Source: an uncultured bacterium
GTDB taxonomy: Bacteria > Joyebacterota > Joyebacteria > Joyebacterales > Joyebacteraceae
Reading direction: 5' to 3'
DNA: 64,000 bases
NCBI GenBank assembly: GCA_964487295.1
Contig: CAZAQL010000001.1
Coordinates: 13,091-77,090 of the forward strand
This document shows, piece after piece, positions 6,216 to 61,632 of this stretch. How positions within the stretch are numbered: the first letter of the stretch is position 1; each line of letters begins with the position of its first letter. The notes under the pieces were generated by a model, which was given only the letters and a program-made list of their open reading frames with translations, ran no database searches and was not told where the DNA came from. The position numbers were made by a program, and so were the translations under genes.

Positions 6216-6243
6216 GCACGGGCGGCCGCCCGGCCGCCCGTGC
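6216..6243 (+). terminator. GC-rich hairpin downstream of malic enzyme (11-bp stem, no U tract)
   Basis: GCACGGGCGGC / GCCGCCCGTGC perfect inverted repeat with a 6-nt loop, 24 nt after the stop. Confidence 0.4.
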
Positions 6244-6266
6244 GGTCTCGGAATCCCGGGTTCCGC

Positions 6267-6866
6267 ATGACTGAAGAGCTGCATCCTACCGACACCGAGC
6301 TCGTGACCGCCGCGAAGAACGGCGACAATGAGGCCTTCGGCCAACTCGTCGAGCGGCACGAGGCGAACGTCTACGGTCTCTGTCTCAAGATGCTCAAGAA
6401 CCCCGAGGACGCCGAGGACTGCCTCCAGGAGGTCTTCGTCAAGGCGTACAAGGCGCTTCCCGGTTTTCGCGAGGAGGCGCGGTTCTCCACCTGGATCTAC
6501 CGGATCGCGACCAATGCCGCCCTCATGCGCATCCGCAAGAAGAAGCTCGATACGGTGTCCCTCGACCAGCCGGTCGAGCTCGGAGAGACGAAGGTCCCGC
6601 GCGAGGTCGCGGACTGGACCACCGATCCCTCGACCAACGTCATGAACGATGAGCTCTCCGCCGTGCTCACTCAGCACATCAACGACCTTCCGCCCAACAA
6701 CAGGATCGTGTTCGTGCTCCGGGACGTGCACGGTCTCTCGACCGACGAGACGGCCGGCGTGCTCGGGCTGACCGCCCCGGCGGTCAAGTCGAGGCTGCAC
6801 CGGGCCAGGCTGTTTTTGCGCGAGCGCCTGTCGGAGTACTACGCTCGTGGAGGGCCCCCCGCGTGA
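6267..6866 (+). CDS. RNA polymerase ECF sigma factor (sigma-70 family, regions 2 and 4)
   Basis: Region 2 (FGQLVERHEANVYGLCLKML..EDCLQEVFVKAY..FSTWIYRIATN) and region 4 (RIVFVLRDVHGLSTDETAGVLGLTAPAVKSRLHRAR). ORF open from GTG 6240; ATG 6267 chosen as start. Confidence 0.8.
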   Translation: MTEELHPTDTELVTAAKNGDNEAFGQLVERHEANVYGLCLKMLKNPEDAEDCLQEVFVKAYKALPGFREEARFSTWIYRIATNAALMRIRKKKLDTVSLDQPVELGETKVPREVADWTTDPSTNVMNDELSAVLTQHINDLPPNNRIVFVLRDVHGLSTDETAGVLGLTAPAVKSRLHRARLFLRERLSEYYARGGPPA

Positions 6867-6943
6867 CACGTGAATCGTTCTGCGCGGTTCTGAATCGAAA
6901 GTGTGTTGCACAATCACTCAATCGGCAGCAAGGAGGACGCAGA

Positions 6944-8884
<1,941 letters not shown>

Positions 8885-11723: not shown

Positions 11724-13526
11724 ATGAGCAACGGGTCGGAAGCAGACTCGGGCCGCCCGGCGGGCGACCCCGTGAACAGCGGTCGGGAGGACGGGACCGA
11801 CGCCAGGGAGGCGGGCTCCACCATCCGGGGCATTCCGGTGTCGCCGGGCGTCGTTCATGGCCCGGTGATGCTGTTCGGCGACATTCTCGACGAGGTCGAG
11901 ACTCGCGTCATCCAACCGTCGGAGGTCGACGCTGAGATCGAGCGGCTCCGCGAGGCCATCAGGCTCGTGAAGGAGGAGCTGGCGCGGGACGCCGAACGCA
12001 TCTCCGGTCAGCTCGGCCAGAGCGAGGCCGACATCTTCCTCGTTCACACGATGATCCTTGAGGACAAGAAGCTCGTCGAGGAGATCGAGGAGCGCATTCG
12101 CACCGAGCTCATCAACGCCGATGCCGTCGTCGCCCAGGAGATGAAGCGGGTCAGTGGCGTGCTCCGCGCGTCGGATGATGCCTATCTCATGGACCGTTCG
12201 TACGATGTCACCGACATCGGGAAGCGCGTGATCGAGCGCATGCTCGGGGTCTGGGCGCACTGTCCCCTGACTCACCCGATGATCATCGTCGCGCGCGAGC
12301 TTCGGGCGTCGGACACGGTGTCGATGGACCGCGGGAGAGTCCTCGGCTTCGTCACCGAGATGGGCGGCCGGCAGGCGCACGCGGCGATCCTGGCGCGCTC
12401 GCTGGGCGTGCCGGCGATCGTGGGGGCGCACGGGATCGTGGACCGGGTACGCTCCGGCGACACGCTCGCCGTCGACGGCTCGACGGGCGAGGTCCTGATC
12501 AACCCGTCGACCGACGTCCTCGCCCGGTACATGCAGAAGCAGGAGCAGGAGGCACTCGACTGGGCCGCGCTGGCGCCGTATCGCGAGGCGGTAACGCGGA
12601 CGGCCGATGGGACCCGCATCGAGCTCATGGCCAACATCAGCACGCCGGAGGAGTCGGTGGCGGCCACCGCTCTCGCCGTCGACGGTGTCGGACTGTTCCG
12701 GACCGAGATCCCGTTCATCGAGGCCGGTTTCTATCTGAGTGAGGACGCGCAGTACGCGGTCTACCGGAAGGCCGTCGAGGGCGTGGGCCGGGGCCCCCTG
12801 ACGATCCGGACGCTCGATGTGGGCGGCGACAAGTTCATAGGTCGCGAGAATCCTCTCGCGGAGCACAATCCGCACCTGGGGTACCGGTCGATCCGCGTGT
12901 CGCTCGACCACCCCGACGTCTTCCTCGAGCAGCTGCGCGCGATCCTGCGGGCCGGCGCGCATGGCGAGGTCAGACTGCTTCTTCCCATGGTGTCGGGAAT
13001 GGGGGAACTCCGCGCGGCACGGGATTTGCTCGATCAGGCGCGGGCATCGCTCGCGAAGGACGGAGTGCCGCACGCTCCGAACGTGCCGGTCGGGGTGATG
13101 ATCGAGATCCCCTCGGCCGTGATGGTCGCCGACCGGCTCGCGGCCGAGAGCGACTTCCTGAGCATCGGAACGAACGACCTGGTTCAGTACGCGCTGGCCG
13201 TCGATCGAGGGAACACGTACGTCGACCATCTCTATCGGCCGTACGACCCCGCCGTGCTCGCGCTCATCGACCGGACCGTGCGCGCGGCGCGGGACGCCGG
13301 CAAGCCGGTCGCGGTCTGCGGGGAGATGGCCGGCGTGACCGAGTACATCCCCCTGCTGCTCGGCCTCGGGGTGCGCGAGTTCTCGGTCGCCATGAGCAGG
13401 ATCCTCTTCGCGAGACGCGCGATCGCTCTGACCGACCTTGCCGAGGCTGAAGCCCTCGCCGCCCGGGCGCTCGGCGCCTCGACGGCGGCCGAGGTCGCCC
13501 TGGAACTCGGCATCAAGGGAGCATGA
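11724..13526 (+). CDS. ptsI: phosphoenolpyruvate-protein phosphotransferase (PTS enzyme I)
   Basis: Phosphohistidine region GGRQAHAAILARSLGVPAIVG. PEP-utilizing TIM barrel (IRTLDVGGDKF, SIGTNDLVQYALAVDR, CGEMAG). ~40-aa disordered N-terminal extension. GGAGG upstream of ATG 11724. Confidence 0.8.
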   Translation: MSNGSEADSGRPAGDPVNSGREDGTDAREAGSTIRGIPVSPGVVHGPVMLFGDILDEVETRVIQPSEVDAEIERLREAIRLVKEELARDAERISGQLGQSEADIFLVHTMILEDKKLVEEIEERIRTELINADAVVAQEMKRVSGVLRASDDAYLMDRSYDVTDIGKRVIERMLGVWAHCPLTHPMIIVARELRASDTVSMDRGRVLGFVTEMGGRQAHAAILARSLGVPAIVGAHGIVDRVRSGDTLAVDGSTGEVLINPSTDVLARYMQKQEQEALDWAALAPYREAVTRTADGTRIELMANISTPEESVAATALAVDGVGLFRTEIPFIEAGFYLSEDAQYAVYRKAVEGVGRGPLTIRTLDVGGDKFIGRENPLAEHNPHLGYRSIRVSLDHPDVFLEQLRAILRAGAHGEVRLLLPMVSGMGELRAARDLLDQARASLAKDGVPHAPNVPVGVMIEIPSAVMVADRLAAESDFLSIGTNDLVQYALAVDRGNTYVDHLYRPYDPAVLALIDRTVRAARDAGKPVAVCGEMAGVTEYIPLLLGLGVREFSVAMSRILFARRAIALTDLAEAEALAARALGASTAAEVALELGIKGA

Positions 13527-15921
13527 ACTGAACTACCGGATTCGTACAGACACCCTTCGGACAGCGCTTGTCGCGACCGTCGCGCTGGTCCTGGCGCTCG
13601 GGGCGTCCGAGGCGGACGCACGCTGGCGTGCGACCGCCGACTCCCTCTACGCGGTGGCCGAGCTCCATTACCAGGGGTCTGACTTCGTCACCGCGGCGCG
13701 TCTCTATGGAGACATCACGGTCCTCCTCGACGAGCAGGAGGAGGCCGGGCTCGGATCGTACTTCGAGAAGCTCGGCGCCCGGGCCGCCTTCCTCAAGGCG
13801 CGGGCGTTCGAACGGGCGGGAGACTGGGAGCAGGCGGAGAAGGCATACGCCTCGGCGCTCCCCCTGATGCGGCCCATCGGCGACGCCGTCAACTTCCGCA
13901 TGGCCGTCTGCCGGCTCGAGCAGGACGACCTCGAGGGCGCGACATCGCTCCTGCGCGCGATCGTCGAGGACGGCGAGGAGACCTCGTTCGACGAACGGGC
14001 GGTCGAGGCGCTCGGCGACGCGCACCGCCGCTTCTCGGAGTGGGACCTGGCCATCCAGTGGTATCGCCTGCTGCTGGCAAGGGCGCCATCCTACGACGAG
14101 CAGGCGCGAATCCACACCAGCATCGGGATGACGCACGAGGCTCGCGGCGACCGCGAGACCGCGATGCGCAGCTACGCCAGGGTCGTTGACGAGTTCCCCC
14201 GCTCGCGGCACGCGCACGATGCGATGAAGGAGGCCAGGAAGCTCTCTCGCTCATTCACCGATCGCTACCACCAGGGTCTTGTCCTCTACAACCGGAGGCT
14301 CTACGCCGACGCCGCCGAGTTCTTCGAGCACTACATCAGAAACGACGACGATGCGACATGGCGGCTCGAGGCTACCTACTACCTCGGACGCGCGAACCAG
14401 CGGCTCGGACGATACGATGCCGCCGCGAAGCACTACGCGGCCGCGATCGCTATCGGCGAGGGCGACGGGGGCGGAGACGGTACGGCGACGCCCGACAGCG
14501 AGGAGTACCATCTCGCCTGGCAGCGCCTCGCCTACGCGCGGCGCGTGCTGGGAGACGCCCAGGCCTGCCTGTGCACGTACGACGACTACGTGGCGAGGCA
14601 CCCGTCCGCCGACCACGCCGCAGACGTGCTCTGGGAGAAGGCGCGCTTCCTCGAGGACGAGAAGCGATGGGACGAGGCCGCGGAGGTCTTCGCCCTGCTC
14701 GCGGAGCGCTATCCGCATACGGAGAGGGCCGGTGACGCGCGATTCCGACGTGGGCTCGTGCTCTACAAGAACGGCGACCGCGAGGCCGCCGAGGCGGCGT
14801 TCACGCGCGACGCGTCCGTCGCGCGCGGGGAGGACCTCGCCCGCGCCGCCTACTGGCTCGGGAAGACCCGCGAGGCGCTCGGCCATCGGCGCCAGCCGCT
14901 CGTCGACTACCGGCGGGCCCGCGAGAGCGCGCCGGACTCGTACTACGGAAGACGGGCGTCGGAGAGCCTCGTGCGACTCGGGGTCGTGGATCCGGCGCCG
15001 GAGCGGGACCCTTCCACGGCCGCGCTCCGCAGGGCGCGCGTTCGCCCGGCCTGGGCGAACGGACCGGGCCGTGACTACGGCGCGTGGCTCGCCACGTGGG
15101 CCGAGCGCACCTACGTCCCGATCGAGTACATCGCCGTCCGGGAGCGGCTCATGGCGGACCGGTGGTTCGTCAGGGCCGACCATCTGCGCGCCGTCCACAT
15201 GGACGAGAACGCGGAGGAGGAGTTCTCACGGCTGGAAGAGAGCACGGCGTCGGATCCCACGATGCTCTCCATGCTCGTGGACTACTACGAGCGTTCGGGG
15301 CTCAACCGCCGCGGCATCCGCCTCGCCGAGCGCATCCTGCGCATGTCTCCCGTCGAGAACGCGAGTGAGGCGCCGGTGTATCTCGCCGAGCGCATCTTCC
15401 CACGGCATTTCGAGGACGTCGTCGAGCCCGAGTGCTTCGAGCGCGGGGTCGACGCGAACCTCTACTACGGGCTGATGCGGCAGGAGAGCGTCTTCGAGTC
15501 CGACGCGGTCTCGTGGGTGGGGGCGCGAGGGCTCTCGCAGATCATGCCCGCGACAGGCCGGTGGATCGCACGTCGTATCGATCACGGGCGGTTCCGGCTG
15601 GATCACCTCATGGACCCCTCGACGAACATCCGCTTCGGCGCGTACTACCTCGCCGAGCAGCTCGCTGAGTTCCAGGGCGATCCCCTCAGGGCACTCGCGG
15701 CCTACAACGGGGGACCGCGCAACGTCCCGCGGTGGTGGGGATACGGTGGGTGCGACGACGTTGACGTGTTCGTGGAGGACATCGGATACGCCGAGACCTC
15801 GGACTACGTGCGTCGCGTCTACGCCTACTGGCGTCTGTACGAGGAGATCTACGGGCGTTCTCCGGCGCCGGCGGCCGCAACCCCGTCATTCCGACCGGCG
15901 TCCGCCGCTTCGTCATCCTGA
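13438..15921 (+). CDS. TPR-repeat protein with C-terminal SLT-family lytic transglycosylase domain (secreted)
   Basis: SLT domain GLMRQESVFESDAVSWVGARGLSQIMPATG..IRFGAYYLAEQL..AYNGGP. Signal-like TALVATVALVLALGASEADA. The only ATG/GTG/TTG upstream of the signal peptide is ATG 13438, which overlaps ptsI by 89 nt, so the start is uncertain. Confidence 0.7.
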   Translation: MPRLKPSPPGRSAPRRRPRSPWNSASREHELNYRIRTDTLRTALVATVALVLALGASEADARWRATADSLYAVAELHYQGSDFVTAARLYGDITVLLDEQEEAGLGSYFEKLGARAAFLKARAFERAGDWEQAEKAYASALPLMRPIGDAVNFRMAVCRLEQDDLEGATSLLRAIVEDGEETSFDERAVEALGDAHRRFSEWDLAIQWYRLLLARAPSYDEQARIHTSIGMTHEARGDRETAMRSYARVVDEFPRSRHAHDAMKEARKLSRSFTDRYHQGLVLYNRRLYADAAEFFEHYIRNDDDATWRLEATYYLGRANQRLGRYDAAAKHYAAAIAIGEGDGGGDGTATPDSEEYHLAWQRLAYARRVLGDAQACLCTYDDYVARHPSADHAADVLWEKARFLEDEKRWDEAAEVFALLAERYPHTERAGDARFRRGLVLYKNGDREAAEAAFTRDASVARGEDLARAAYWLGKTREALGHRRQPLVDYRRARESAPDSYYGRRASESLVRLGVVDPAPERDPSTAALRRARVRPAWANGPGRDYGAWLATWAERTYVPIEYIAVRERLMADRWFVRADHLRAVHMDENAEEEFSRLEESTASDPTMLSMLVDYYERSGLNRRGIRLAERILRMSPVENASEAPVYLAERIFPRHFEDVVEPECFERGVDANLYYGLMRQESVFESDAVSWVGARGLSQIMPATGRWIARRIDHGRFRLDHLMDPSTNIRFGAYYLAEQLAEFQGDPLRALAAYNGGPRNVPRWWGYGGCDDVDVFVEDIGYAETSDYVRRVYAYWRLYEEIYGRSPAPAAATPSFRPASAASSS

Positions 15922-16493
15922 CCGGCGTCCGCTACCCTGTCGTCCTGACCGGCGTCCGCCACCCCATCGTCCTGACCGGCGTCCGCCACCCCATCGTCCT
16001 GACCGGCGTCCGCCGGGGATGTGACCGTTCGATCCGCCCAATCCTCCACTTCGAGGATCACGTCAGCGTCGTTTTTCGTCTGCGTCGCCAGCACGTAGGC
16101 CCAGTTCGCGGCCACCGCGACGAGCACGACGGCCCAGGCGACGAGACGCTCCCGTCGCGAGAGCGTCACGCGCAACACGGCGCCGCGGGCGAGCCTGGCG
16201 ACGCCCAGCACAGCGGCCGCGGGGATCACGACGAGGATGATCAGCGCATCGAGCGGGTTGGTCCTCAGAGCGAGCCCTGGGTGGCCCCTCAGTACGGCGC
16301 CGGTGCCTCGCAGAAATCCACACGTGGGACAGGGAAGACCTGTCAGTCTGCGAAAGAGGCAGATGACGGGACCGTCCCAGTGCGCGGTAGAGAGCGCGGC
16401 GAAGAGCCCGAACGCCAGGATGAGCAGGGCCGCCGCGACCGCGAGTCGGGGTGGCCGCGGTGCGCCGTTAATGCGTTCGAGTCGGATCCTCAC
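15849..16493 (-). CDS. DUF2752-like membrane protein (CPTCG motif) with repetitive acidic C-terminal tail
   Basis: GLPCPTCGFLRGTGAVLRG followed by TM helices. GTG start. The tail ADAGQDDGV x4 is encoded by the 27-bp tandem repeat. The 3' end overlaps the convergent SLT gene by ~70 nt. Confidence 0.6.
   Translation of the reverse strand: MRIRLERINGAPRPPRLAVAAALLILAFGLFAALSTAHWDGPVICLFRRLTGLPCPTCGFLRGTGAVLRGHPGLALRTNPLDALIILVVIPAAAVLGVARLARGAVLRVTLSRRERLVAWAVVLVAVAANWAYVLATQTKNDADVILEVEDWADRTVTSPADAGQDDGVADAGQDDGVADAGQDDRVADAGQDDEAADAGRNDGVAAAGAGERP
15917..16018. repeat. 27-bp tandem repeat x ~4 (CCTGACCGGCGTCCGCCACCCCATCGT)
   Basis: Direct tandem copies seen at 15917-15943, 15944-15970, 15971-15997 and a partial copy at 15998-16018. 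The array spans the stop of the SLT gene. On the minus strand it encodes ADAGQDDGV x4. Confidence 0.85.
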
Positions 16494-16524: not shown

Positions 16525-16896
16525 CTACCAGCCGGAACCGATGGCGGCCATGATGAAGGCGAAGTACGCGGCGTAGATGATGAGCGCGAGCGCCTGCAGC
16601 GCCGTGCCGACGATGCCGCAGATCATGCCGGCGCGCGTCAGGTCGGTGCCGGCGGGGTCACGGAGCCCCTCCCGCATCTCGCGGAGGTCACCGGAGCCCA
16701 TGACCCAGGCCATGATGCCCAGGATCGCGCCGATGCACGGGATGACGAGCGACAGGATGCCGAGAACGAGAATGACGGCCCCGCGCTGAGGATTCATGGG
16801 AGCGGCTGAGGTCGACACGTTCTGTGTGATGGCCGCCTCCGGGAGGTTGGGATCCCGCGGCGACTGCTCCGGAGTGCGCTGCGAAGACTCCTCCAT
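16525..16896 (-). CDS. DUF4190-like small membrane protein (paralog 2)
   Basis: Two TM helices flank the conserved AWVMGSGDLREMREGLRDPAGTDLTRAGMICGI motif. Q/P-rich N-terminus. ATG with AGGAGA RBS. Confidence 0.7.
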   Translation of the reverse strand: MEESSQRTPEQSPRDPNLPEAAITQNVSTSAAPMNPQRGAVILVLGILSLVIPCIGAILGIMAWVMGSGDLREMREGLRDPAGTDLTRAGMICGIVGTALQALALIIYAAYFAFIMAAIGSGW

Positions 16897-16984: not shown

Positions 16985-17326
16985 CTACCAGCCGCCGGAA
17001 GCGGCGCCGATGGCGACGGCGAAGATCCAGATGATGAGCACGAGGACGTTGATCGCCACCGAGATGATCCCGCAGATCATGCCGGCGCGCGTCAGACCCT
17101 CGCCCGCGGGATCTCTGAGTCCCTCGCGCATCTCGCGGAGGTCGCTCGACCCCATTACCCAGGCAATGATGCCCGTGATGACACAGACCACGAGGCCGAT
17201 GATGCCCAGCGCCAGGATGACGCCGCCGCGGTGCGGCTGCATCATCCGGGGCGTTCCACCCACCGGCTGCTGCGCCGCAGGCTGCGCCTGCTGTCCCTGC
17301 GACTCGTACTGCGGGGTCTCCTGCAT
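16985..17326 (-). CDS. DUF4190-like small membrane protein (paralog 1)
   Basis: Motif AWVMGSSDLREMREGLRDPAGEGLTRAGMICGI. ATG at 17326, 2 nt after the iscU stop, with GGAGG upstream. The track ORF extends to a TTG at 17413. Confidence 0.7.
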   Translation of the reverse strand: MQETPQYESQGQQAQPAAQQPVGGTPRMMQPHRGGVILALGIIGLVVCVITGIIAWVMGSSDLREMREGLRDPAGEGLTRAGMICGIISVAINVLVLIIWIFAVAIGAASGGW

Positions 17327-17328
17327 GG

Positions 17329-17724
17329 CTACTCCTCGGATGGGGTGGACCGCTGCTTCTCCATGTAGTCCCTGATCGCCTTGTGGAGCGCGTCGGCTGC
17401 GAGGTTGGAGCAATGCATCTTCTGCGGCGGGAGGCCGTCCAGCTCGCTGGCGACGTTCTCGCGCGTGATCTCGAGCGCCTCCTCGAGCGTCTTTCCCTTC
17501 GCCATCTCGGTGACCATGCTGCTGGTGGCGATGGCCGAGCCGCAGCCGAACGTCTTGAACTTGATGTCGGTGATGACGTTGTCCTCGACCTTGATCTGGA
17601 TCTCCATGAGGTCGCCGCAGACGGGGTTTCCCTCGACCCCGACGCCGTCCGGTGATTCGAGCTCACCCACGTTCCGCGGGTTCCTGAAGTGCTCGAGGAC
17701 CTTCTCGCTGTAGATGGGAGTCAC
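17329..17724 (-). CDS. iscU: Fe-S cluster assembly scaffold IscU/NifU
   Basis: YSEKVLEHFRNPRNVG, GNPVCGD, FGCGSAIATSS and HCSNLAADAL are classic IscU strings. GTG at 17724 with AAAGGAG 9 nt upstream gives 131 aa. The track ORF extends to a TTG at 17787. Confidence 0.8.
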   Translation of the reverse strand: MTPIYSEKVLEHFRNPRNVGELESPDGVGVEGNPVCGDLMEIQIKVEDNVITDIKFKTFGCGSAIATSSMVTEMAKGKTLEEALEITRENVASELDGLPPQKMHCSNLAADALHKAIRDYMEKQRSTPSEE

Positions 17725-17908
17725 GGTGTCTCGCTCCTTTCCGAAGTATGCCCCATCAATGATAGACTCAGCGCGGGGGTCCGTCAAGACGGCGCGTGCC
17801 GGGAAAACCGGAAGCGGCGCCTTGCTGAGTTGAGCTCGGTGGTGCTACCATGACGGCTTCGAGCGCGCCTGAGAGCGCGATGGACGCAAACCCAGCCGAG
17901 GGAATCAC

Positions 17909-20185
17909 ATGATGAGCAGTCGGTCATCGATCAGCGTCGCGACAGCCGCCCTCTTCCTGACGCTCGCGCTCCCGCATTCGCTCTGCGCCCGCGGTGTGGG
18001 AGTGCCGCTTCCCGGGCGCGTGTCGGCGGCCGCCTCGGAGGAGGTTCGCAGGCTTCTCGAGCTCGACGCCGCCCGCACGCTCGCACGCGACGGCCGGCTC
18101 GCCCGGCAGGACCTCGAACGGGTCGACCTCGACGTCTGTGTCGACCCGGGTCGGGGGTGGCTCTCCGGTTCGGCGACGCTCCAGTTCGAGGCGACGACGA
18201 CCACCCTCGAGCTCTTCCTGAATGAGTCGCTCACGGTGCTCTCCGTGTCGGGTCCATCCGATCGCCCGCTCGGCTTCGAGCGCGAGGGGCGTCGTATCAC
18301 CGTTCCCATCGGTGCGTCCGTGGACGCCCGGACTCGCGAGATCACGATCGTGTACGAGGGGCTGATGCGACCGACGCACGGTGTGGTCGAGACCGGGCGT
18401 GGCCTGGCGGTTCTCCTCGGCGACGACTGCTGGTATCCCTCCTCCCACGCGACGGACAGGGCTCTCGTCCGTGCCGTCGTCAGGCATCCAGGCCGGTACG
18501 CCAGCGTGCTCAGCGGCTCGCTCGCCGGCATGGCGACGCCGCCCGCGACGCGTCCGGGGCCCTGTGCGTTCGGCGACGTCTGGGAGGCGGGGAACGTCTC
18601 GCCCTGCGCGCTCGTCGTCGGCAGGATCGAGAGCCGGTGGGGCGTTCTCGGTGACGTGTTCACCGGGGCCCATCGGGATACGTCCTCCGGAGAAGCTCGG
18701 GTGTCGCGCGGTGGACGGCGGAGCCCGGTCGACCATCAGGTCAAGCAGCCGCTCAGGTTTCTCGAGTCGTGTTTCGGTCCCTATCCCATGGACTGGCTGC
18801 ACGTGGTGGTTGTGCCTCACGGCCAGCTTGGTCGAGAGGCCGTATCAGGCCCCGGTCTCATCGTCGTGGAGGCCGATGAGGACGACCCGGCTTGCGCGGC
18901 CGATCCGGATCCGGACGCGTACTTCATGGAGCTGGCGCGGATGTGGTGGGACGACGCCTACGACGCCGGTCGCGTCGTCGCGGACGGACTGGCCGCCCAC
19001 ATGGAGCTCGAGTGGCTCGCGAGCGTGCGAGGCGAGGAGATCGCGTCCGAGCGCAAGGACCACCGAAGGCAGCAGTACATGCGCGCGCTGACCGACTCAG
19101 GAGGAGCAGCGCCACTCTCCCTCTGCCTCGGTCCGGACGCGTCGCAGGACGAGAGGATCTCCCTCGGACGGGGCGGCGCGCTCATGGACATCTGCTCCGC
19201 CGTGCTGGGCCGTGACGACTTCTGCCGCGCCGTGCGTCGGGTGGGCGAGGATGCCGGGAGCGGTGACGCGGGTCTCGGCGCGTTCGCGCGTGAGATCGAG
19301 GACGCCCTCGGAGACACCGTCGACTGGCTGCTTTACGAATGGGTGGCGCGGGGCGACCTTCCGGTCTACGCTCTCGAGTACGAGACGCGCCCGGCTCGAG
19401 GCGGAGGATACGTCATCACAGGGACGATCCGACAGCCCACGGAGCCGTTCAGAACGCCGGTGCCGTTGACGATCGACCTCGGTGGGTGGATCTACGACGA
19501 GTGGATCGCCATCGAGTCCGCCGACCAGCAGTTCCGGCTGGAGGCGGAGCTCGAGCCGCAAGCGGTCACGGTCGACGCCGGGAACGTGCTGCTCCGCATC
19601 GATGGCGAGGACCGGGCGCGCGTACATCACGAACTCGGACGTCGCGCGGCCGACGCCAGTCGCTGGACCGAGGCGGTCGACCAGTTCGGCGCGGCGGTCG
19701 CGCTCGACCCGGACCGGTCGGTCTACCGTTCGCGCTACGGCCTCGCCCTCGTGCGCGTCGGGCGCCCCGGCGACGGGCTCCGCGAGCTGCTTCACGCGAT
19801 CGAGCTCAGTCCCTCGAACAGCGACCTTCTGTTCACGACGGGGACGCTCTCGGCCAGGATGGGAGACCACGAGACGGCCGCGGAGGTCCTCGGGCGGTAC
19901 GTCCGGATGCGGCCCGCCGACCCTCGCGGCCACGTAGAGCTCGCCATGTCGCTCATCGAGCTGGGAGACCTCGAGCAGGCCATGGCGAACCTCGACCGGT
20001 GTCCGGTCGGCTCCGACACTACGACCACCGGCCAGTGGCTCGAGCGGTACCACATAGCGGTCGGGCGCTACAGCGAGGCGCGGGGCGAGACCGAGCTCGC
20101 GGTCGCGGCGTACGAGGCGGCGCTCGACGTCAACCCCGTCTCCGACGAGGCGCGCAGGAGGCTGGCCGCCGTTCGTCAGCCGTGA
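17909..20185 (+). CDS. secreted M1-aminopeptidase-like pseudo-peptidase with C-terminal TPR repeats
   Basis: Signal peptide MMSSRSSISVATAALFLTLALP. The segment YFMELARMWWDD aligns with the gluzincin HELAHQWFG motif, but both Zn-ligand His are replaced (M and R). TPR-like C-terminus. Confidence 0.6.
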   Translation: MMSSRSSISVATAALFLTLALPHSLCARGVGVPLPGRVSAAASEEVRRLLELDAARTLARDGRLARQDLERVDLDVCVDPGRGWLSGSATLQFEATTTTLELFLNESLTVLSVSGPSDRPLGFEREGRRITVPIGASVDARTREITIVYEGLMRPTHGVVETGRGLAVLLGDDCWYPSSHATDRALVRAVVRHPGRYASVLSGSLAGMATPPATRPGPCAFGDVWEAGNVSPCALVVGRIESRWGVLGDVFTGAHRDTSSGEARVSRGGRRSPVDHQVKQPLRFLESCFGPYPMDWLHVVVVPHGQLGREAVSGPGLIVVEADEDDPACAADPDPDAYFMELARMWWDDAYDAGRVVADGLAAHMELEWLASVRGEEIASERKDHRRQQYMRALTDSGGAAPLSLCLGPDASQDERISLGRGGALMDICSAVLGRDDFCRAVRRVGEDAGSGDAGLGAFAREIEDALGDTVDWLLYEWVARGDLPVYALEYETRPARGGGYVITGTIRQPTEPFRTPVPLTIDLGGWIYDEWIAIESADQQFRLEAELEPQAVTVDAGNVLLRIDGEDRARVHHELGRRAADASRWTEAVDQFGAAVALDPDRSVYRSRYGLALVRVGRPGDGLRELLHAIELSPSNSDLLFTTGTLSARMGDHETAAEVLGRYVRMRPADPRGHVELAMSLIELGDLEQAMANLDRCPVGSDTTTTGQWLERYHIAVGRYSEARGETELAVAAYEAALDVNPVSDEARRRLAAVRQP

Positions 20186-20289: not shown

Positions 20290-21279
20290 ATGCGGAAGCA
20301 CTTCTTCAGCGGCATTCAGCCGAGCGGACGGCTGCACATCGGGAACTACATCGGCGCCATCAAGCAGTGGATCGGGCTCCAGGACCAGTACGCGCCGATC
20401 TTCGGGATCGTCGACTACCACGCGGTCACCGTTCCCTACGAGGCCTCCGAGATGCCCACGCGCGTGCTGGACGCGGCGGCGGCATACCTCGCCGCCGGGG
20501 TCGACCCGGAGAAGAGCATTCTCATGGTCCAGTCGCACGTGCCCGAGCACACGGAACTCGCGTGGGTCCTCAACTGCCTGACCCCCATGGGAAGGCTCTC
20601 GCGCATCCCGACGTTCAAGGACAAGGTCCGTCAGAGTCCGGGCCAGGTCAGCATGGGGCTGTTCGACTACCCGGTTCTCATGGCCGCTGATATCCTCCTC
20701 TATAAGTCGGAGATCGTGCCCGTCGGCGAGGACCAGGTGCCGCATCTCGAGTTCACGCGCGAGGTCGCGAGGAAGTTCAACGCGACGTTCGGCGAGACGT
20801 TCCCGGAGCCCTCCGAGGTTCTGGGGAAGGGTGCCCGCCTCCTCGGGTTGGACGGTGAGTTCAAGATGAGCAAGAGCCTGGACAACTGCATCTATCTCGA
20901 CGATTCGGACGAGGAGATCGAGAAGAAGATCGCGACGGCGAAGACCGACCCGGCGCGGAAGCGGCGCGACGACCCCGGGAACCCGGACGTCTGCAATATC
21001 TTCAACTACCACAAGGTCTTCTCCACGCCGGAGGAGCAGGCCCACTGCTCCGAGGGCTGCCGCACGGCCGGCATCGGATGCGTCGAGTGTAAGCGCATCC
21101 TCGTCGGGCACATGAAGGAGATGATCGGACCGCTCCGCGAGAGGCGCGAGGAGCTCCTGGCGGAGCCGGACGACATCATGGATGTGCTGGCCGACGGCGC
21201 CGACCGCGCCCGCTCGATCGCGCGGGAGACGATGCGCGAGGTCCGCGAGCGGATGGGACTCGCCGTTCGGGGAGGATAG
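20290..21279 (+). CDS. trpS: tryptophan--tRNA ligase
   Basis: HIGH region FSGIQPSGRLHIGNY and a KMSKS motif. 329 aa. Ends in TAG. Confidence 0.9.
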   Translation: MRKHFFSGIQPSGRLHIGNYIGAIKQWIGLQDQYAPIFGIVDYHAVTVPYEASEMPTRVLDAAAAYLAAGVDPEKSILMVQSHVPEHTELAWVLNCLTPMGRLSRIPTFKDKVRQSPGQVSMGLFDYPVLMAADILLYKSEIVPVGEDQVPHLEFTREVARKFNATFGETFPEPSEVLGKGARLLGLDGEFKMSKSLDNCIYLDDSDEEIEKKIATAKTDPARKRRDDPGNPDVCNIFNYHKVFSTPEEQAHCSEGCRTAGIGCVECKRILVGHMKEMIGPLRERREELLAEPDDIMDVLADGADRARSIARETMREVRERMGLAVRGG

Positions 21280-21280
21280 C

Positions 21281-21898
21281 ATGGCAGAGGAACGCGACGA
21301 GCGATGGGTCTACGTGGCGCTCGCCGCCATCGCCGTGGGATACCTCGTCCACGCGAACTGGGAGACGATCGTCGACCGGGTGAGCCTCAGGGGCATCGGC
21401 AGGTTCACGTCGTCCATCGGGTACCTCGTCGCCCCCCTCGGGGCCGCCGCCCTCGCGCTCTATCGCAGAAAGAAGGCGGAGGGAACGAAGCGCGAGTGGG
21501 AGCAGCAGGCCTTCGCCGAGGGGATCGTTCGCGAGGAGCAGGGCGTCAGTGGCCGAAAGGTCGACACCAAGGGTCGCGGGACCTTCCGCGCGGACCTGCG
21601 GCTGACGCGCATGGCCCTCTACGTGTTCGACAGGAGCGGCCGTGTGGAGCCCATGCGGCTGCTGGTCCACATGGAGGCGGTGACGGATCTCGGGCTCTAC
21701 GACGTGGAGTACGAGCCGGGACGGGCCGGCGGCTCCTTCACCGTCCGCGTCGTCGGGAAGTCGAAGTTCGGGCTCCGTTTCGAGAGCGCGCAGGCGCTGG
21801 GATGGTGGACGGACATCCGGAAGGTGCTGGGTCTCCCGGCGGACCGCCACAGGGCGCCATCCGCCGAGGGCGGGGATGCCGCCACGCCGTCCGATTGA
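21281..21898 (+). CDS. hypothetical membrane protein (two N-terminal TM helices, possible PH-like cytoplasmic domain)
   Basis: ATG 21281 follows GGAGG and abuts the trpS stop. TM segments WVYVALAAIAVGYLV and YLVAPLGAAALALY. No family recognised. Confidence 0.55.
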   Translation: MAEERDERWVYVALAAIAVGYLVHANWETIVDRVSLRGIGRFTSSIGYLVAPLGAAALALYRRKKAEGTKREWEQQAFAEGIVREEQGVSGRKVDTKGRGTFRADLRLTRMALYVFDRSGRVEPMRLLVHMEAVTDLGLYDVEYEPGRAGGSFTVRVVGKSKFGLRFESAQALGWWTDIRKVLGLPADRHRAPSAEGGDAATPSD

Positions 21899-23375: not shown

Positions 23376-24023
23376 ATGCTGCGAGAGACCATGCCTGAGC
23401 GCGATCCCAGGGAGATCGACCTCGAGAAGGTCCGTGCCAGTCAGGCCGGGGACCACGAGGCATTCGATTTCCTCATCGACAAGTACAAGGATGTCGTCTA
23501 CGCGGTCGCGTACCGGTTCGCGCACGACCAGGATCTTGCGATGGACCTGGCGCAGGACACGTTCATCCGCGCGTACAAGGGCATCAAGAGCTTCAAGGGA
23601 AGATCCAGTTTCTCGACGTGGCTCTACCGGATCGCGATGAACACGTGTATCGACTACACGAGGAAGCACTCGCGTTCCGTCGCGTCTCAGGCAGTGCCGG
23701 AGGAGGTCGCGGAGTACGCCGACAGCGAGCCGATCGGCAGGAAGCCCGACAGGGGGCCGGCGAGACGGGTCCTCACGAGGGAGCTCGGCGAGCAGATCCA
23801 GCGGGCGGTCGACGCGCTGCCCGAGTACCACCGGTCGGTGTTCGTGCTCTACGAGATCGAGGGGATGTCATACAAGGAGATCGCGGACGTCGTCGGTTGC
23901 TCGATCGGCACGGTGATGTCGCGACTTCACTACGCAAGGAAGAAGCTGCGCGTGATGCTCGAACCCTATGTGGATGGCGGTATCGACGTCGGCGCGGCGG
24001 ACGGGGAGAGCGGGAAGAACTGA
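23376..24023 (+). CDS. RNA polymerase ECF sigma factor (RpoE-like)
   Basis: Region 2 DLAQDTFIRAYKGIKSF..FSTWLYRIAMN and region 4 SVFVLYEIEGMSYKEIADVVGCSIGTVMSRLHYARKKL. Confidence 0.8.
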   Translation: MLRETMPERDPREIDLEKVRASQAGDHEAFDFLIDKYKDVVYAVAYRFAHDQDLAMDLAQDTFIRAYKGIKSFKGRSSFSTWLYRIAMNTCIDYTRKHSRSVASQAVPEEVAEYADSEPIGRKPDRGPARRVLTRELGEQIQRAVDALPEYHRSVFVLYEIEGMSYKEIADVVGCSIGTVMSRLHYARKKLRVMLEPYVDGGIDVGAADGESGKN

Positions 24024-33535: not shown

Positions 33536-33564
33536 TTGCTTTGCTCCGTAATCTGTGTTATCAT
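33536..33564 (+). promoter_or_regulatory. candidate sigma-70 promoter TTGCTT-N17-TATCAT in AT-rich island
   Basis: A local AT-rich stretch (cattgctttgctccgtaatctgtgttatcatttgaagttagg) in otherwise GC-rich DNA. AAGGAG 9 nt before ATG 33628. Confidence 0.4.
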
Positions 33565-33627
33565 TTGAAGTTAGGAGCAATCAAAGACGAGACGCCCGAT
33601 TTCCTCCTCGACAAGGAGATGGAGAGC

Positions 33628-36255
33628 ATGGTGCGTGTCCTGACAATCAGCCTTGCCGCGGCGCTGCTGGTCGCGGCCGCGGTCCCTGCGGCGGCCGGTC
33701 CCGAGGGGCCGTACGTGCAGGCCCGGGTCCAGTTCCGCGACGCCGCCGAGGCGGAGCGGTTCATGAGCCTGGACGAGCTCGACGTGATGAAGTACAAGCC
33801 CGGCGTCGGCGTTCAGCTCGTCACGAGCCACGAGCAGATCGAGGAGTTCCGGTCGCTCGGCTACGACGTCGTCATCGAGATCGATGACATGTCGAGCTTC
33901 TACGCCGCCCGGAACACGGCTCGCGGTTACGGTGACTTCTACACGTTCGACGAGACCGTGACCTTCATCAACTCGCTTCACGCGTCCTATCCGAACATCG
34001 TGAGCGAGCCCATCAGCATCGCGACGACGGAGCAGGGGAGGACGCTGTGGGCGCTCAAGATCTCCGACAACCCGGAGGTCGACGAGCTTGAGCCCGAGAT
34101 CCTTCTCGACGCGGTTCATCACGCGCGCGAGCCGATCACGATCAACGCCGTCCTCAACTACATGGACTGGCTGACGTCAAACTACGGGACGGACCCCGAG
34201 GCGACGTTCCTCGTAGACAACCGGGAGATCTGGTTCCTCCCGTGCGTCAACCCGGACGGCTATGTCTACAACGAGCAGACCGACCCCAACGGCGGCGGCA
34301 TGTGGCGCAAGAACCGCCGGGACAATGCCGGCAGCTCGTGTTACGGCGTCGACCCGAACCGCAACTACAGCTACCAGTGGGGCACGTCCGGCATCTCGTT
34401 CGACCCGTGCAGCGACATCTACTGCGGGACCCAGGCGTTCTCCGAGCCGGAGATCGCCGGCTACCGTGACTTCGTCGAGTCGCACGACTTCGTGACGAAC
34501 ATCACGTTCCACTCGGTCGCCGGAGCGATCCTGGTTCCGTGGAGCTACACGACCACATCCCCACCCGAGCCGGATAACACGATCTTCCGCGACATCGGCG
34601 ACATGATGGCGATGTCGAACGGCTACGAGGTCGGGACCGCGTACGAGACGATCAACTACACCTGCTCCGGCACCACCTGCGACTGGATGTACGGCGTGCA
34701 CGGGATCTGGTCGCTCTGCATCGAGGTGAGCGGCAGCGGCTTCTGGCCGCAGCAGAGCGAGATCGCCGGGCTCACGGCCGAGAACCTCTGGCCGCAGCAG
34801 TACATCAGCCGCATCGCGGGGGCCTACCTCGCGCTCAGCTCGACGCACTTCACCGGCGGAAACGGCGACCAGGAGCCGGACGCCGGCGAGACGCTCGACC
34901 TGACGATCACGGTCGAGAATCAGGGCGTCGTCGCGGACGCGTCGAACGTCCAGGTCACCCTGGTGACGGACGATCCGTACGTCGCGCTGCACGATGCGCA
35001 CACGACGCTCGGTTCGATCGCGGCGGGGTCCTCCACGCAGAACACGTTCGACCCGTTCTCCCTCTCGGTCGACGCGGGAACCCCGGACGGTCACGGTCTC
35101 GCCGTGACGCTCATCATCGAGGGCGACGGGCTGTACATGGAGGAGGAGCTGTCCTGGATGGTCGGCGAGCCGACGGTCGTGTTCTTCGACGACATGGAGA
35201 GCGGCACCGGCAACTGGGTCGAGAATGACGGCTACTGGGGTCTGACGACCTCGTCGTACCACTCGGCATCGAACAGCTACACGGACAGTCCGAACGGCAG
35301 CTACAGCAACTACCGGAACACGTGGATCGAGCTGGCGTCCCCGATCGACTTCTCCGCCGCGTCGGCTGCGGACCTCTCCTTCTGGCACCGCGTCTCCACG
35401 GAGGAGGACTACGACTTCTGCTACGTCGAGGTCTCGGACGACAACGGAGCGACGTGGAACCAGGTTGGCCCGAAGTACCACGGCAACAGCTACGGCTGGG
35501 ATCAGGTGGAGCTGTCGCTGAACGATTACGTCGGAACGGCGGGCTTCAAGCTCCGCTTCCGCTTCACGTCGGATACCTACGTGACCGCCGACGGATGGTA
35601 CGTGGACGACGTGACGATCAGCGGGCCGCCGACCGGCAACACGAAGCCGACCGCGCCGGTGCTGAACGACCCGCCCGATGGCGGCACGGTGTCGGTCTCC
35701 ACGCCGGAGCTCACGGTCACAAACGCCGTGGACAGCGATCCCGGCGACGTGCTCACGTACGGTTTCCGCGTCTACGACGACGAGTTCTGCACGAGCCTCG
35801 CCGCGTCGATCTCCGGCGTGGCCGAGGGCAGCGGAACGACGTCGTGGACCGTCGACTCCGGTCTCGCTGACGGCACGTACTACTGGCGGGCCTACGCGGA
35901 CGACGGGACCGAGCGAAGCCAGCTCATGGAGACCGCGTCCTTCACGGTGGAGAGCACGGGCGTCGACGAGGCCGTCGGCCGCCTCGCGCTCCATGCCGCG
36001 AGCCCGAACCCGTTTGCCGGTTCTGCGAGACTCTCGTTCTCGCTTCCCGAGCGAGCGGACGTCGAGCTCTCCGTCTACAGCGTTGACGGCAGACTGGTGC
36101 GAACGCTCGTATCCGGCGAGGCCGGTCCCGGCGTCATCGAGCTCACATGGGACGGTCGTGACAACGGCGGCCGCCGCGTGGGCAACGGCCTGTACTTCAT
36201 GCGCCTGACCGCGGCCGACGAGACGAGGCACGGCAAGCTCGTCATGCTCCGCTAG
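33628..36255 (+). CDS. secreted M14 zinc carboxypeptidase with MAM/jelly-roll-like and Fn3-like domains and Por/T9SS C-terminal sorting domain
   Basis: M14 zinc site HHAREP. Signal peptide. C-terminus ..SPNPFAGSARLSFSLPERADVELSVYSVDGRLVRTLVSGEAGPGVIELTWDGRDNGGRRVGNGLYFMRLTAADETRHGKLVMLR matches the T9SS CTD pattern. Confidence 0.85.
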   Translation: MVRVLTISLAAALLVAAAVPAAAGPEGPYVQARVQFRDAAEAERFMSLDELDVMKYKPGVGVQLVTSHEQIEEFRSLGYDVVIEIDDMSSFYAARNTARGYGDFYTFDETVTFINSLHASYPNIVSEPISIATTEQGRTLWALKISDNPEVDELEPEILLDAVHHAREPITINAVLNYMDWLTSNYGTDPEATFLVDNREIWFLPCVNPDGYVYNEQTDPNGGGMWRKNRRDNAGSSCYGVDPNRNYSYQWGTSGISFDPCSDIYCGTQAFSEPEIAGYRDFVESHDFVTNITFHSVAGAILVPWSYTTTSPPEPDNTIFRDIGDMMAMSNGYEVGTAYETINYTCSGTTCDWMYGVHGIWSLCIEVSGSGFWPQQSEIAGLTAENLWPQQYISRIAGAYLALSSTHFTGGNGDQEPDAGETLDLTITVENQGVVADASNVQVTLVTDDPYVALHDAHTTLGSIAAGSSTQNTFDPFSLSVDAGTPDGHGLAVTLIIEGDGLYMEEELSWMVGEPTVVFFDDMESGTGNWVENDGYWGLTTSSYHSASNSYTDSPNGSYSNYRNTWIELASPIDFSAASAADLSFWHRVSTEEDYDFCYVEVSDDNGATWNQVGPKYHGNSYGWDQVELSLNDYVGTAGFKLRFRFTSDTYVTADGWYVDDVTISGPPTGNTKPTAPVLNDPPDGGTVSVSTPELTVTNAVDSDPGDVLTYGFRVYDDEFCTSLAASISGVAEGSGTTSWTVDSGLADGTYYWRAYADDGTERSQLMETASFTVESTGVDEAVGRLALHAASPNPFAGSARLSFSLPERADVELSVYSVDGRLVRTLVSGEAGPGVIELTWDGRDNGGRRVGNGLYFMRLTAADETRHGKLVMLR

Positions 36256-43041: not shown

Positions 43042-43089
43042 GGATAATTGGAAGCGAATGAGTGGGTCATGGCATCCGAACGGAGGAAC

Positions 43090-44868
43090 ATGATGCGCAG
43101 ACTGACCGCTTTGCTCGTCCTCGTGCTTGTTCTCGTCTCGGCGCTCTCAGCCGCGGCGAAGCTTGAGCTGGCCGAGATGACGACGCGCGGCGCGATCCAG
43201 GACGCCACGGCGCGCGGCGACCTGGAGGAGGCACAGAAGTACCTCTACATGGCGTATTCGATCTATGCGCCCGAGAAGCTGCCGGCGGAGTATCGCGGCG
43301 GCCGGATCGACAAGTGCGGCGTCCCGACCATCGAGGCGATCGACGACGCGCTCCCCACGTTGCCCGAGGCTGTGGCGAACGAGATCCGCGGCCTGCGGGT
43401 TCGCCCGTCGTGTCAGACCTACATGGACACCGAGCATTTCCGCATCCACTACGATACGAGCGGCACGCACGCGATCCTCTCGACCGACTACCTCAACGCC
43501 ATCGCAACGGCTCTGGAGAACTGCTGGGACGAGGAGATCGACGTGCTCGGGTTCCGTCAGCCGCCGAGCGACGGCAGCGACGCGGACGGCGGAGGCGGCA
43601 GCGCGCACTACGACTTCTACGTCCAGAGCCTCTCGGGCGTTTACGGCTACTGCCAGCCGACGTTCTACGCCCCGGGCGGACCCGCGAACGACGCGACGAG
43701 CTTCTGCGTCATCGACAACGACTACGCGGGGTTCGGATACGTCGACCCGACAGACCCGATGAAGGTCACGGTCGCCCACGAGTTCTGTCACGGCCTTCAG
43801 GCCGCGCACGACGTGAACGAGGAGCTGTGGTACAAGGAGTGCACGTCGGTGTGGGTCGAGGAGATGGTCTACGACGAGATCAACGACTACACGCAGTACT
43901 GCAGCTCGTTCTTCTCGAGCCTCTGGCGCCCGCTGGAGTACGACGACAGCAACGTCCGCATCTACGGGTCGTTCGTCTGGAACATGTTCCTCACGGAGAA
44001 CATCAGCCCCAGCGTGGTCGTGGACAACTGGTGGCAGATGGAGGTCTCGGGAGAGTACACGGCCATGAACGCCGTGTTGACCACATACGGGACGTCGCTC
44101 GAGGAGCAGTTCCACGAGTTCAGCATCTGGAACTTCTTCACGAACGCGAGGAACGACGGCGCCCACTACGAGGAAGCCGCTTACCTGCCGCTCGCCTCGT
44201 TCCAGCGGACCTTCGGCATGTATCCGCTGACCGACGTGGGTCCGTACACGGCGACGCGTCCGGACCACATGGGTTCCAACTACATCAAGTTCTCGAACCC
44301 CGGGAACACGTGGACCGGTCTCCACCTCTCGTTCGACGGTCCTGCGCTCTACGAGCTGCCCTACTGGGCCGACGTCTGCGTCCGCGAGGACCAGGTCGGC
44401 GTGGGGCACACGAGCCATCTCGGCGAGATCACGCTGAACCCGTGGGGCAACGGCGACATGACGGTCGCTGACTGGGATCTCATGGACTACGCGTGCCTGA
44501 TCGTCACGAACGGCTGCACGACGACCGATGACATGGACTACCTCTTCAGCGCCGAGCAGGTCGACACCGGCGTCGAGGTCGGCTCTCACATCTTCGCGAT
44601 GAAGCCGGCCAGCCCGAATCCGTTCACGGCGCAGACCTCGATCGCGTACACCGTCCCCAACGGCGGAGGCGCCGTCGAGATGACGATCTACGACGTCAAC
44701 GGCAGAGCCGTCCGCACGCTCGTCGACGAGCAGATGATGCCCGGCGACCGTCTGGCGTACTGGGACGGCCTGGACAACAACGGCGAGAAGGTCGCGTCCG
44801 GCGTCTACTTCGCGCGCCTCAACGTCGACGGCCTGACGGCCTGCGGCAAGCTCGTCGTTCTGAAGTAA
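43090..44868 (+). CDS. secreted HEXXH zinc metallopeptidase-like protein with Por/T9SS C-terminal sorting domain
   Basis: Signal peptide MMRRLTALLVLVLVLVSALSAAA. HEFCH motif (TVAHEFCHGLQAAHD). C-terminus ..ASPNPFTAQTSIAYTVPNGGGAVEMTIYDVNGRAVRTLV..GVYFARLNVDGLTACGKLVVLK. Confidence 0.7.
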   Translation: MMRRLTALLVLVLVLVSALSAAAKLELAEMTTRGAIQDATARGDLEEAQKYLYMAYSIYAPEKLPAEYRGGRIDKCGVPTIEAIDDALPTLPEAVANEIRGLRVRPSCQTYMDTEHFRIHYDTSGTHAILSTDYLNAIATALENCWDEEIDVLGFRQPPSDGSDADGGGGSAHYDFYVQSLSGVYGYCQPTFYAPGGPANDATSFCVIDNDYAGFGYVDPTDPMKVTVAHEFCHGLQAAHDVNEELWYKECTSVWVEEMVYDEINDYTQYCSSFFSSLWRPLEYDDSNVRIYGSFVWNMFLTENISPSVVVDNWWQMEVSGEYTAMNAVLTTYGTSLEEQFHEFSIWNFFTNARNDGAHYEEAAYLPLASFQRTFGMYPLTDVGPYTATRPDHMGSNYIKFSNPGNTWTGLHLSFDGPALYELPYWADVCVREDQVGVGHTSHLGEITLNPWGNGDMTVADWDLMDYACLIVTNGCTTTDDMDYLFSAEQVDTGVEVGSHIFAMKPASPNPFTAQTSIAYTVPNGGGAVEMTIYDVNGRAVRTLVDEQMMPGDRLAYWDGLDNNGEKVASGVYFARLNVDGLTACGKLVVLK

Positions 44869-61479: not shown

Positions 61480-61508
61480 TTGACGACCTGCCGTCATTTG
61501 GGTATTAT
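61480..61508 (+). promoter_or_regulatory. near-consensus sigma-70 promoter TTGACG-N17-TATTAT with TGACG-N6-CGTCA palindrome over the -35
   Basis: AT-rich island (tgattgaaagtcattgacgacctgccgtcatttgggtattatcgtattgttg). ~125-nt leader before ATG 61633. Confidence 0.5.
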
Positions 61509-61632
61509 CGTATTGTTGTCGGACTACCAATCATCAACGAACAGAGTTGCTGCCAGCGGAAGGGTCGGCGGCCAGGTCGCGTTGTCGCGCCTGTCCGTGT
61601 CGCTCGTCCGCGCCATCACGGAGGAGCCGACG

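Follow-up and report, generated by a model that had tools for sequence, protein, structure and literature searches.

The window analysed here is the whole 64,000-nucleotide (nt) stretch of DNA from an uncultured bacterium (contig CAZAQL010000001.1, positions 13,091 to 77,090), which has a G+C content of 64-71%. At positions 17909-20185 of its forward strand lies a gene for a protein of 758 amino acids (aa), here referred to as the target, in which a probably exported body descended from the M1 aminopeptidases has lost its zinc site and is followed by an array of tetratricopeptide repeats (TPRs). The open reading frame (ORF) is preceded by a Shine-Dalgarno-like GAGGGA at 17898-17903, 5 nt upstream of the ATG, and its third-position G+C of 0.85 is as high as in the real genes of the window. 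An identical protein, P0001, is held in a public collection, where it is encoded on an 83.7-kb contig, and members of its family carry no annotation beyond 'tetratricopeptide repeat protein' or 'hypothetical'. The features of the gene, all on the + strand and with residue numbers in brackets, are as follows.

17909-20185, +: complete coding sequence, 758 aa plus stop (from the ORF list, the identical protein P0001 and the ratio of nonsynonymous to synonymous substitution, dN/dS)
17909-17989, +: signal-peptide-like N-terminus without a lipobox (1-27: MMSSRSS, then ISVATAALFLTLAL, then PHSLCA/RG; by reading of the sequence)
18026-18106, +: family-specific N-terminal helix with invariant Asp53 and Arg56 (40-66; model and conservation)
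18107-18679, +: predicted M1 domain I, the N-terminal beta domain, with Cys77, Cys219 and the invariant GDVW at 222-225 (67-257)
18728-19348, +: predicted M1 domain II, thermolysin-like and formerly catalytic, with Cys288, Cys406 and Cys439 (274-480; alignments and model)
18836-18856, +: edge strand EAVSGPG, equivalent to GxMEN plus two residues, with Glu to Ser313 and Asn to Gly314 (310-316; alignments)
18926-18940, +: MELAR at the HExxH position, with the first His to Met340, Glu341 kept and the second His to Arg344 (340-344; alignments)
18983-19006, +: DGLAAHME, equivalent to EGFAtYxE, with the third zinc ligand Glu to Asp359 (359-366; alignments)
19157-19174, +: ISLGRG, equivalent to the M1 Y-x-K-G, with the catalytic Tyr to Leu419 (417-422; alignments)
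19349-19573, +: predicted M1 domain III, a beta sandwich (481-555; hhalign and model)
19604-20182, +: TPR array of about 11 helices, at the chain position of M1 domain IV (566-758; Pfam, structures and model)
18137-18139, 18563-18565, 18770-18772, 19124-19126 and 19223-19225, +: codons of Cys77, Cys219, Cys288, Cys406 and Cys439, respectively

Scans against Pfam and NCBIfam detect only TPR families in the target, with no match to PF01433 or PF17900 even at E<10; the same lack of a match at E<10 applies to family member P0015, and the target falls below the gathering cutoff of Pfam Peptidase_M1. A single-sequence phmmer search of residues 1-565 against the PDB gave marginal M1 matches (best, the M1 enzyme tricorn-interacting factor F3 at E 0.13), and this alignment already set ISLGRG opposite ISYGKG of F3. 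With the same residues, a word-indexed search retrieved ten close relatives of 38-58% identity, nearly all of 750-770 aa, as well as one canonical 'aminopeptidase N' (E 5e-5); the full-length close relatives all end in C-terminal TPRs. When a profile (A2) built from the N-terminal parts of family members was used, M1 peptidases were the only PDB matches (6a8z at E 2.2e-4, F3 at 1.1e-3, Legionella PepN at 0.01), and 'lleLaraWW' was aligned on HELAHQWF of 6a8z and F3, 'adGlaahme' on sEGFAtYaE, and 'GvpavsgPGL' opposite GAGAMENWGA. An exhaustive hidden Markov model (HMM) search of 1.84 billion representatives yielded 4875 matches at E<=1e-3, of which about 20 clusters at E<1e-36 form the family proper. 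Beyond the family lies a continuum of thousands of matches at E 1e-31 to 1e-18 over query residues ~70-560, and each of the eight non-family relatives scanned exceeds the cutoff of Pfam Peptidase_M1 (PF01433; 29-82 bits vs 27.7).

Profile-profile alignment by hhalign of the family against 20 HExxH-intact M1 sequences gave a probability of 100% (E 5.3e-54, 476 columns, query 67-562), to be read with the caveat that 17 of the 20 templates came from among the matches of the same profile; the templates are independently Pfam M1 members and include canonical GxMEN/HELAHQWFG enzymes. An AlphaFold model of the N-terminal 565 residues, based on a 52-sequence alignment, reached a mean predicted local distance difference test (pLDDT) value of 91.5 and a predicted template modelling score of 0.90. 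In a Foldseek search with it, the top 50 PDB matches were all M1 aminopeptidases (E down to 4.7e-27, query TM-score 0.62-0.69, ~555 columns). A run with 11 close sequences was poor (pLDDT 64, with residues 154-335 below 50) and still retrieved M1 structures. The M1 domain order of N-terminal beta domain, thermolysin-like domain and beta sandwich is present in the target, and in the model residues 67-560 are domains I-III of an M1 peptidase. The motif resemblance is a matter of homology and not of chance, because three independent alignments (HMM vs PDB, 52-sequence MAFFT and hhalign) agree. The M1 fold proposed by the first-pass annotation is thereby borne out, since profile-profile alignment, structure prediction, fold search and orthologs all agree on it.

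The former zinc site lies in YFMELARMWWDDAYD (residues 338-352), where MELAR is followed by the conserved Trp346-Trp347. Residue counts at this site were taken from the 52-sequence MAFFT alignment by comparing 25 diverse family members with the 20 nearest HExxH-intact relatives. His is absent from position 340 in the whole family (0/25; L 10, S 5, G 3, A 2, M 1, I 1, others) and from position 344 (0/25; R 13, others), whereas it occupies both positions in 20/20 intact relatives. The general-base Glu at position 341 is found in 11/25 family members (G, A, D, C and P also occur) vs 20/20 intact relatives, and the third zinc ligand at position 359 is D in 10, E in 10 and another residue in 5 of the 25 vs E in 20/20. 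At position 419, the catalytic Tyr, which stabilises the transition state in M1 enzymes, occurs in none of the family (R 9, L 8, others) vs 14/20 intact relatives. The spacing from the motif to the third ligand is X14 in 25/25 family members, as opposed to the X18 of canonical M1 enzymes, i.e., the link between the two former zinc helices has been shortened by four residues. Neither HExxH nor HDxxH occurs anywhere in the sequences of the 25 family members, and the target protein contains no HExxH, HDxxH, HxxxH or HxxEH at any position. The sole His column conserved in the family is H255 (21/25), which is outside the old site; His364 is present in 12/25 and E366 in 20/25 members.

In the M1 enzyme aminopeptidase B, 18 of 18 tested mutations in HEXXHX18E abolished activity (PMC2241622), and for this reason the substitutions in the target are taken to mean loss of canonical catalysis: without the His-His-Glu site, the target should be unable to hold a catalytic zinc or to activate water. 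As judged from its sequence, it fails every tested defining feature of an active M1 enzyme. A homologous fold, missing catalytic residues and purifying selection are found together here, as is expected of a pseudo-peptidase. In active M1 enzymes, GxMEN (GAMEN) is the exopeptidase motif to which the N-terminus of the substrate binds. Its equivalent in the target reads EAVSG (310-314), and Pro315-Gly316 follow in 25/25 family members, ahead of a hydrophobic strand. The nearest HExxH-intact relatives also lack GxMEN and carry the same 'xPG + hydrophobic strand'; the missing GxMEN is therefore no marker of inactivation.

The first-pass annotation had read the gene as a probable pseudo-peptidase, catalytically dead, with both zinc-ligand histidines substituted (His to Met and His to Arg). 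The substitutions recur in all three alignments, and the overall reading gains support from profile-profile alignment, from the substitutions in orthologs and from structure prediction. Two further losses had not been listed, namely Asp359 at X14 and Leu419 in place of Tyr. An intact HExxH/E triad elsewhere in the protein, which would have spoken against it, was found in 0/25 family members. Two details need revision. MELAR does map onto the degraded motif, but its Glu cannot be regarded as a conserved remnant, being kept in 11/25 members and only in the subclade of the window; and the GAMEN-like motif is indeed degenerate, but this degeneracy is shared with HExxH-intact relatives and does not belong to the inactivation.

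The N-terminus has one basic residue and a 14-residue hydrophobic core, which is the only hydrophobic stretch in the protein, followed by 'LCA/RG'. A basic n-region and a single hydrophobic core occur in 25/25 family members, and orthologs have clearer AxA sites, e.g., 'VQA/EP' and 'ALA/EP'. A lipoprotein was considered and rejected, as there is no lipobox, Cys26 is preceded by H-S-L, and Cys26 is not conserved in orthologs. Four other large ORFs of the window end in a FlgD_ig-type C-terminal domain, and the target has no such domain. On these patterns, the target would be exported across the inner membrane and stay in the periplasm.

At the other end, Pfam TPR_2 is matched at 48.5 bits (cutoff 27; E 4.9e-13), TPR_14, TPR_16, TPR_19 and TPR_11 are also above their Pfam cutoffs, and the TPR matches together span residues 570-757. 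Consensus-TPR structures match the tail at E 7.7e-20, and the 11-sequence AlphaFold run predicts 11 TPR helices with a pLDDT of ~90. The C-terminal end is formed by a nearly invariant NPVSDEARRRL (742-752, nt 20132-20164). M1 enzymes follow a four-domain plan (10.1101/2023.05.30.542994), and from the domain order the TPR array would occupy the place of the helical domain IV. HExxH-intact relatives P0035, P0091 and P0112 also carry C-terminal TPRs. The earlier description of a secreted protein fused to TPRs therefore holds in part: the sequence pattern agrees with export, with the periplasm as the better reading of 'secreted' since the FlgD_ig-type domain is lacking; the TPR array is confirmed by Pfam families and predicted helices; and the novelty of the fusion falls away, as the three intact relatives have the same M1-then-TPR order.

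In addition to losses, the family has acquired features of its own. The helix at residues 40-66 (pLDDT 94-98) precedes the M1-aligned part of the protein, which begins at residue 67, and the relatives have nothing equivalent; the conservation of this helix is 0.51 in the family vs 0.08 in relatives. Cys77, Cys219, Cys288, Cys406 and Cys439 are each present in 23-25/25 family members and in 0/27 M1 relatives. P0014 has lost Cys77 alone, and in P0024 both Cys77 and Cys219 are missing, a hint that these two may pair; the family cysteines are probably joined as disulfides in the periplasm. No part of the protein is more conserved than domain III (0.68 in the family vs 0.37 in relatives), and its RTPvPLTiDLGGWiYDEW (515-532), with the consensus RTPxPLTxxLGGWxYxEW, is the most conserved motif of the family. 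Altogether, identity reaches at least 92% in 84 columns of the 25 family sequences, which share 35-58% identity. Read from this conservation, the gains (cysteines, helix, domain III and the C-terminal motif) point to a new function under selection rather than to drift.

Among 185,579 species genomes scanned, the gene was found at nine loci, in one copy each, all in 'Candidatus Eisenbacteria' or in unclassified 'uncultured bacterium' metagenome-assembled genomes. The gene order is identical in the nine loci apart from small membrane genes: L007, a complete locus, has neither DUF2752 nor DUF4190, and three loci end at a contig edge. Between loci, the target is 42-58% identical, vs 76-90% for tryptophanyl-tRNA synthetase (TrpRS), phosphomannomutase and IscU; the target thus evolves faster than its neighbours yet is always present. 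Nei-Gojobori dN/dS for the least saturated pairs was 0.125 (L006-L007), 0.16 (L001-L004) and 0.18 (L005-L006), and both parts of the protein are constrained (0.14-0.19 for the M1-like part, 0.08-0.17 for the TPRs). Together with the intact orthologs, these values rule out a decaying pseudogene.

In a neighbour-joining tree of the M1-aligned columns, which is indicative only at such divergence, the family is monophyletic on a long branch and nested among HExxH-intact M1-like proteins, with P0036 and P0144 as its nearest intact relatives; the xELAR form is limited to the subclade of the window. Outside the window, there is another group of HExxH-less M1 proteins with TPRs (P0033, P0040, P0045, P0048, P0050, P0073 and P0146), of which P0033 is HEY3128925.1, annotated as 'tetratricopeptide repeat protein [Acidobacteriota bacterium]'. 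Because this Acidobacteriota-type group clusters with the intact M1-TPR proteins P0091 and P0112 in the same tree, two M1-TPR lineages seem to have lost the zinc site independently of each other.

Compared with active M1 enzymes, namely F3 (1z1w), the Deinococcus radiodurans M1 enzyme (6a8z), PepN, ERAP1/IRAP and LTA4 hydrolase, the target lacks the zinc-ligand histidines, the catalytic Tyr and GxMEN, and most of the family has also lost the general-base Glu. The target adds the N-terminal helix, the five cysteines and a signal peptide-like N-terminus, has TPR repeats in place of the ARM/HEAT-like domain IV, and has a zinc-helix link four residues shorter. The nearest proteins by profile (E 1e-27 to 1e-21) are HExxH-intact, i.e., the metagenomic M1-TPR proteins P0035, P0091 and P0112, the 'aminopeptidase N' P0036, and P0144. 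They resemble the target in the 'WW' after the motif and the 'xPG + hydrophobic' edge strand, and three of them in M1-then-TPR order, but they keep both His, the Glu, the third Glu and mostly the Tyr, and lack the five cysteines and the N-terminal helix. The Acidobacteriota-type proteins, whose annotation goes no further than 'tetratricopeptide repeat protein', share the M1 body, the C-terminal TPRs and the replacement of the histidines (e.g., ARRLALQWW), but form a separate clade with other replacement residues and a different TPR sequence, and without the family cysteines.

A literature search for a bacterial M1 pseudo-peptidase or M1-TPR protein returned no description. A keyword search of a 2024 review of inactive metallopeptidase homologs found Tma108 as the only M1 entry and no bacterial M1 case (PMC11266112). 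In eukaryotes, an aminopeptidase-like fold is predicted for the TFIID subunit TAF2 (PMC4309443), and the inactive M1 protein Tma108 of yeast keeps nearly all active-site residues (PMC11266112). The M1 pseudo-peptidases found in the literature, TAF2 and Tma108, are thus eukaryotic and intracellular, whereas the target family is bacterial and, from its N-termini, exported. Pseudo-enzymes are known in most peptidase families, and what is described here is well supported as a sound pseudo-enzyme family with some unexplained gains, which is no surprise in principle. A functional analogy is offered by BepA of E. coli, an M48 zinc peptidase of the periplasm that ends in a TPR domain. In BepA, the edge strand next to the active site and the TPR domain contact an unfolded outer-membrane protein, both being needed for a chaperone-like function that is separable from proteolysis (PMC8423444). 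The likeness is no more than a working analogy: in BepA, too, a gluzincin-type peptidase domain precedes the TPRs and the protein is exported, but it belongs to M48 and not M1, keeps an active HExxH, and no relationship in sequence or fold was found; the target has no M48 Pfam match and its fold is M1.

The explanation favoured here, with a probability of roughly 0.65, is that the target is a dead M1 descendant that crosses the inner membrane and acts through binding instead of hydrolysis; its function is most likely that of a periplasmic non-catalytic binding or scaffold protein. The old substrate groove could still grip an extended polypeptide by beta-strand pairing via the former GAMEN edge strand, and the C-terminal TPR superhelix, in the place of the lid domain IV of M1 enzymes, would bring in a periplasmic partner, either a single protein or a complex. 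In this way the target may serve as a holdase or scaffold for envelope proteins, akin to the protease-independent mode of BepA; an alternative likeness would be to degenerate peptidase domains that regulate other envelope enzymes. Several points weigh against this explanation. The binding or scaffold role is drawn wholly by analogy, and signal-peptide cleavage and the compartment are read from the protein sequence. Glu341, Asp359 and His364 are near the old site and may form a weak or different metal site in the protein of this subclade. The neighbourhood (IscU, TrpRS, phosphomannomutase, an extracytoplasmic function (ECF) sigma factor and, 2 kb upstream of the target, a lytic transglycosylase) gives no functional tie to envelope biogenesis.

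The lytic transglycosylase bears on a possible but clearly less favoured alternative, in which the target is a dedicated regulator whose dead M1 body docks onto an active peptidase or cell-wall hydrolase and activates, inhibits or targets it. Degenerate LytM (M23) factors, which act on amidases, are a model for such a role. Regulation of active relatives and scaffolding of complexes are common roles of pseudo-metallopeptidases (PMC11266112), and the TPR lipoprotein NlpI is an adaptor for the protease Prc in the control of a peptidoglycan hydrolase (PMC5686067). The unusual conservation of domain III and of NPVSDEARRRL is as expected of a fixed partner interface, and the lytic transglycosylase, which is of Slt type and itself contains TPRs, lies 2 kb upstream in every orthologous locus. 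However, four genes, three of them on the opposite strand, separate the Slt gene from the target, and proximity is weak evidence because synteny covers the whole region, where the other genes that can be identified have housekeeping roles.

It is improbable that the target is still an enzyme, with a new catalytic or metal site on the M1 scaffold and a hydrolase or redox activity of other chemistry. Candidate sites are Glu341/Asp359/His364 in the subclade, or the five cysteines with the invariant Asp79, Asp183 and Asp223 and with His255. The restriction of the cysteines to the family, the invariance of several acidic residues and the conservation of H255 and E366 would suit such a site, and in some 'pseudoenzymes' the catalytic residues are reported to have migrated (PMC10211241). 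Nevertheless, Glu341 (11/25) and His364 (12/25) are too patchy for an active site shared by the whole family. The cysteines are spread across three sub-domains, so that disulfides are the simpler explanation in an exported protein, and the joint loss of Cys77 and Cys219 in P0024 fits a disulfide pair. We know of no M1 relative with a cysteine/acidic site of this kind. A related idea, held to be just as much of a long shot, is that a new functional centre was gained, in which the cysteines, the helix with Asp53 and Arg56, and the domain III motif make up a redox-switched or metal-dependent site. If true, this would be an envelope protein whose binding or chemistry follows the redox state of the periplasm; to our knowledge, no M1 derivative with such a centre has been described. 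Lastly, that the gene is not what it seems, i.e., a TPR protein with a chance likeness to M1 motifs or a decaying M1 pseudogene, is hardly credible: the Pfam and NCBIfam scans that see only TPRs and the phmmer value of E 0.13 are what it would predict, but the homology, selection and ortholog results exclude both forms of it.

The favoured explanation, a dead M1 descendant that binds, has consequences for annotation. The family is undetected by Pfam and NCBIfam, yet it is single-copy and syntenic across an uncultured phylum-level lineage, and caution is required: automated annotation should label members of the clade neither as aminopeptidases nor as plain TPR proteins. What is gained is an improved annotation and a defined residue map for 'resurrection' mutagenesis.

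The locus is arranged in the order Slt-TPR lytic transglycosylase, DUF2752, one or two DUF4190, IscU (on the opposite strand), target, TrpRS, a 238-aa ORF without an assigned family, phosphomannomutase and an ECF sigma factor. This context says little on function, because those neighbours that can be identified are housekeeping genes and collinearity extends over the whole region. Between the target gene and trpS, no terminator-like site was detected, and the single promoter-like site seen near the target is on the opposite strand, within iscU. The Slt-TPR ORF (13438-15921) is overlapped at its 3' end by the DUF2752 gene on the other strand (15849-16493, -). The latter encodes a membrane protein with about five tandem copies of the 9-residue unit ADAGQDDGV at its C-terminus, and the part encoding these repeats is the portion that overlaps the Slt-TPR ORF. 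Two tandem DUF4190 genes for small membrane proteins (16525-16896, - and 16985-17413, -) are located between DUF2752 and IscU, and their copy number apparently varies: the window has two separate copies, most loci have a single matching region, and L007 has none. On the other side of the target, the 238-aa ORF (21182-21898, +) has no Pfam match and, as listed, overlaps the 3' end of trpS by ~100 nt; it is kept at the same position, with 44-55% identity, in all seven orthologous loci that reach that far.

Elsewhere in the window, an ECF sigma factor gene runs directly, with a 4-nt overlap, into a gene of the S9 prolyl-oligopeptidase family (together at 6240-8884, +). A second ECF sigma factor gene lies downstream of the target region at 23376-24023, apparently with an anti-sigma-like ORF behind it. 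The four ORFs with a FlgD_ig-like C-terminal domain are at 33541-36255, 43048-44868, 58810-61323 and 61480-63543 (all +); by type, they are an M14 carboxypeptidase that also has a MAM-like domain, an ORF without another Pfam match, a beta-helix/NosD-like protein and a DUF6689 protein. In this organism, the FlgD_ig-like domain may serve several proteins as a common C-terminal domain for sorting or secretion.

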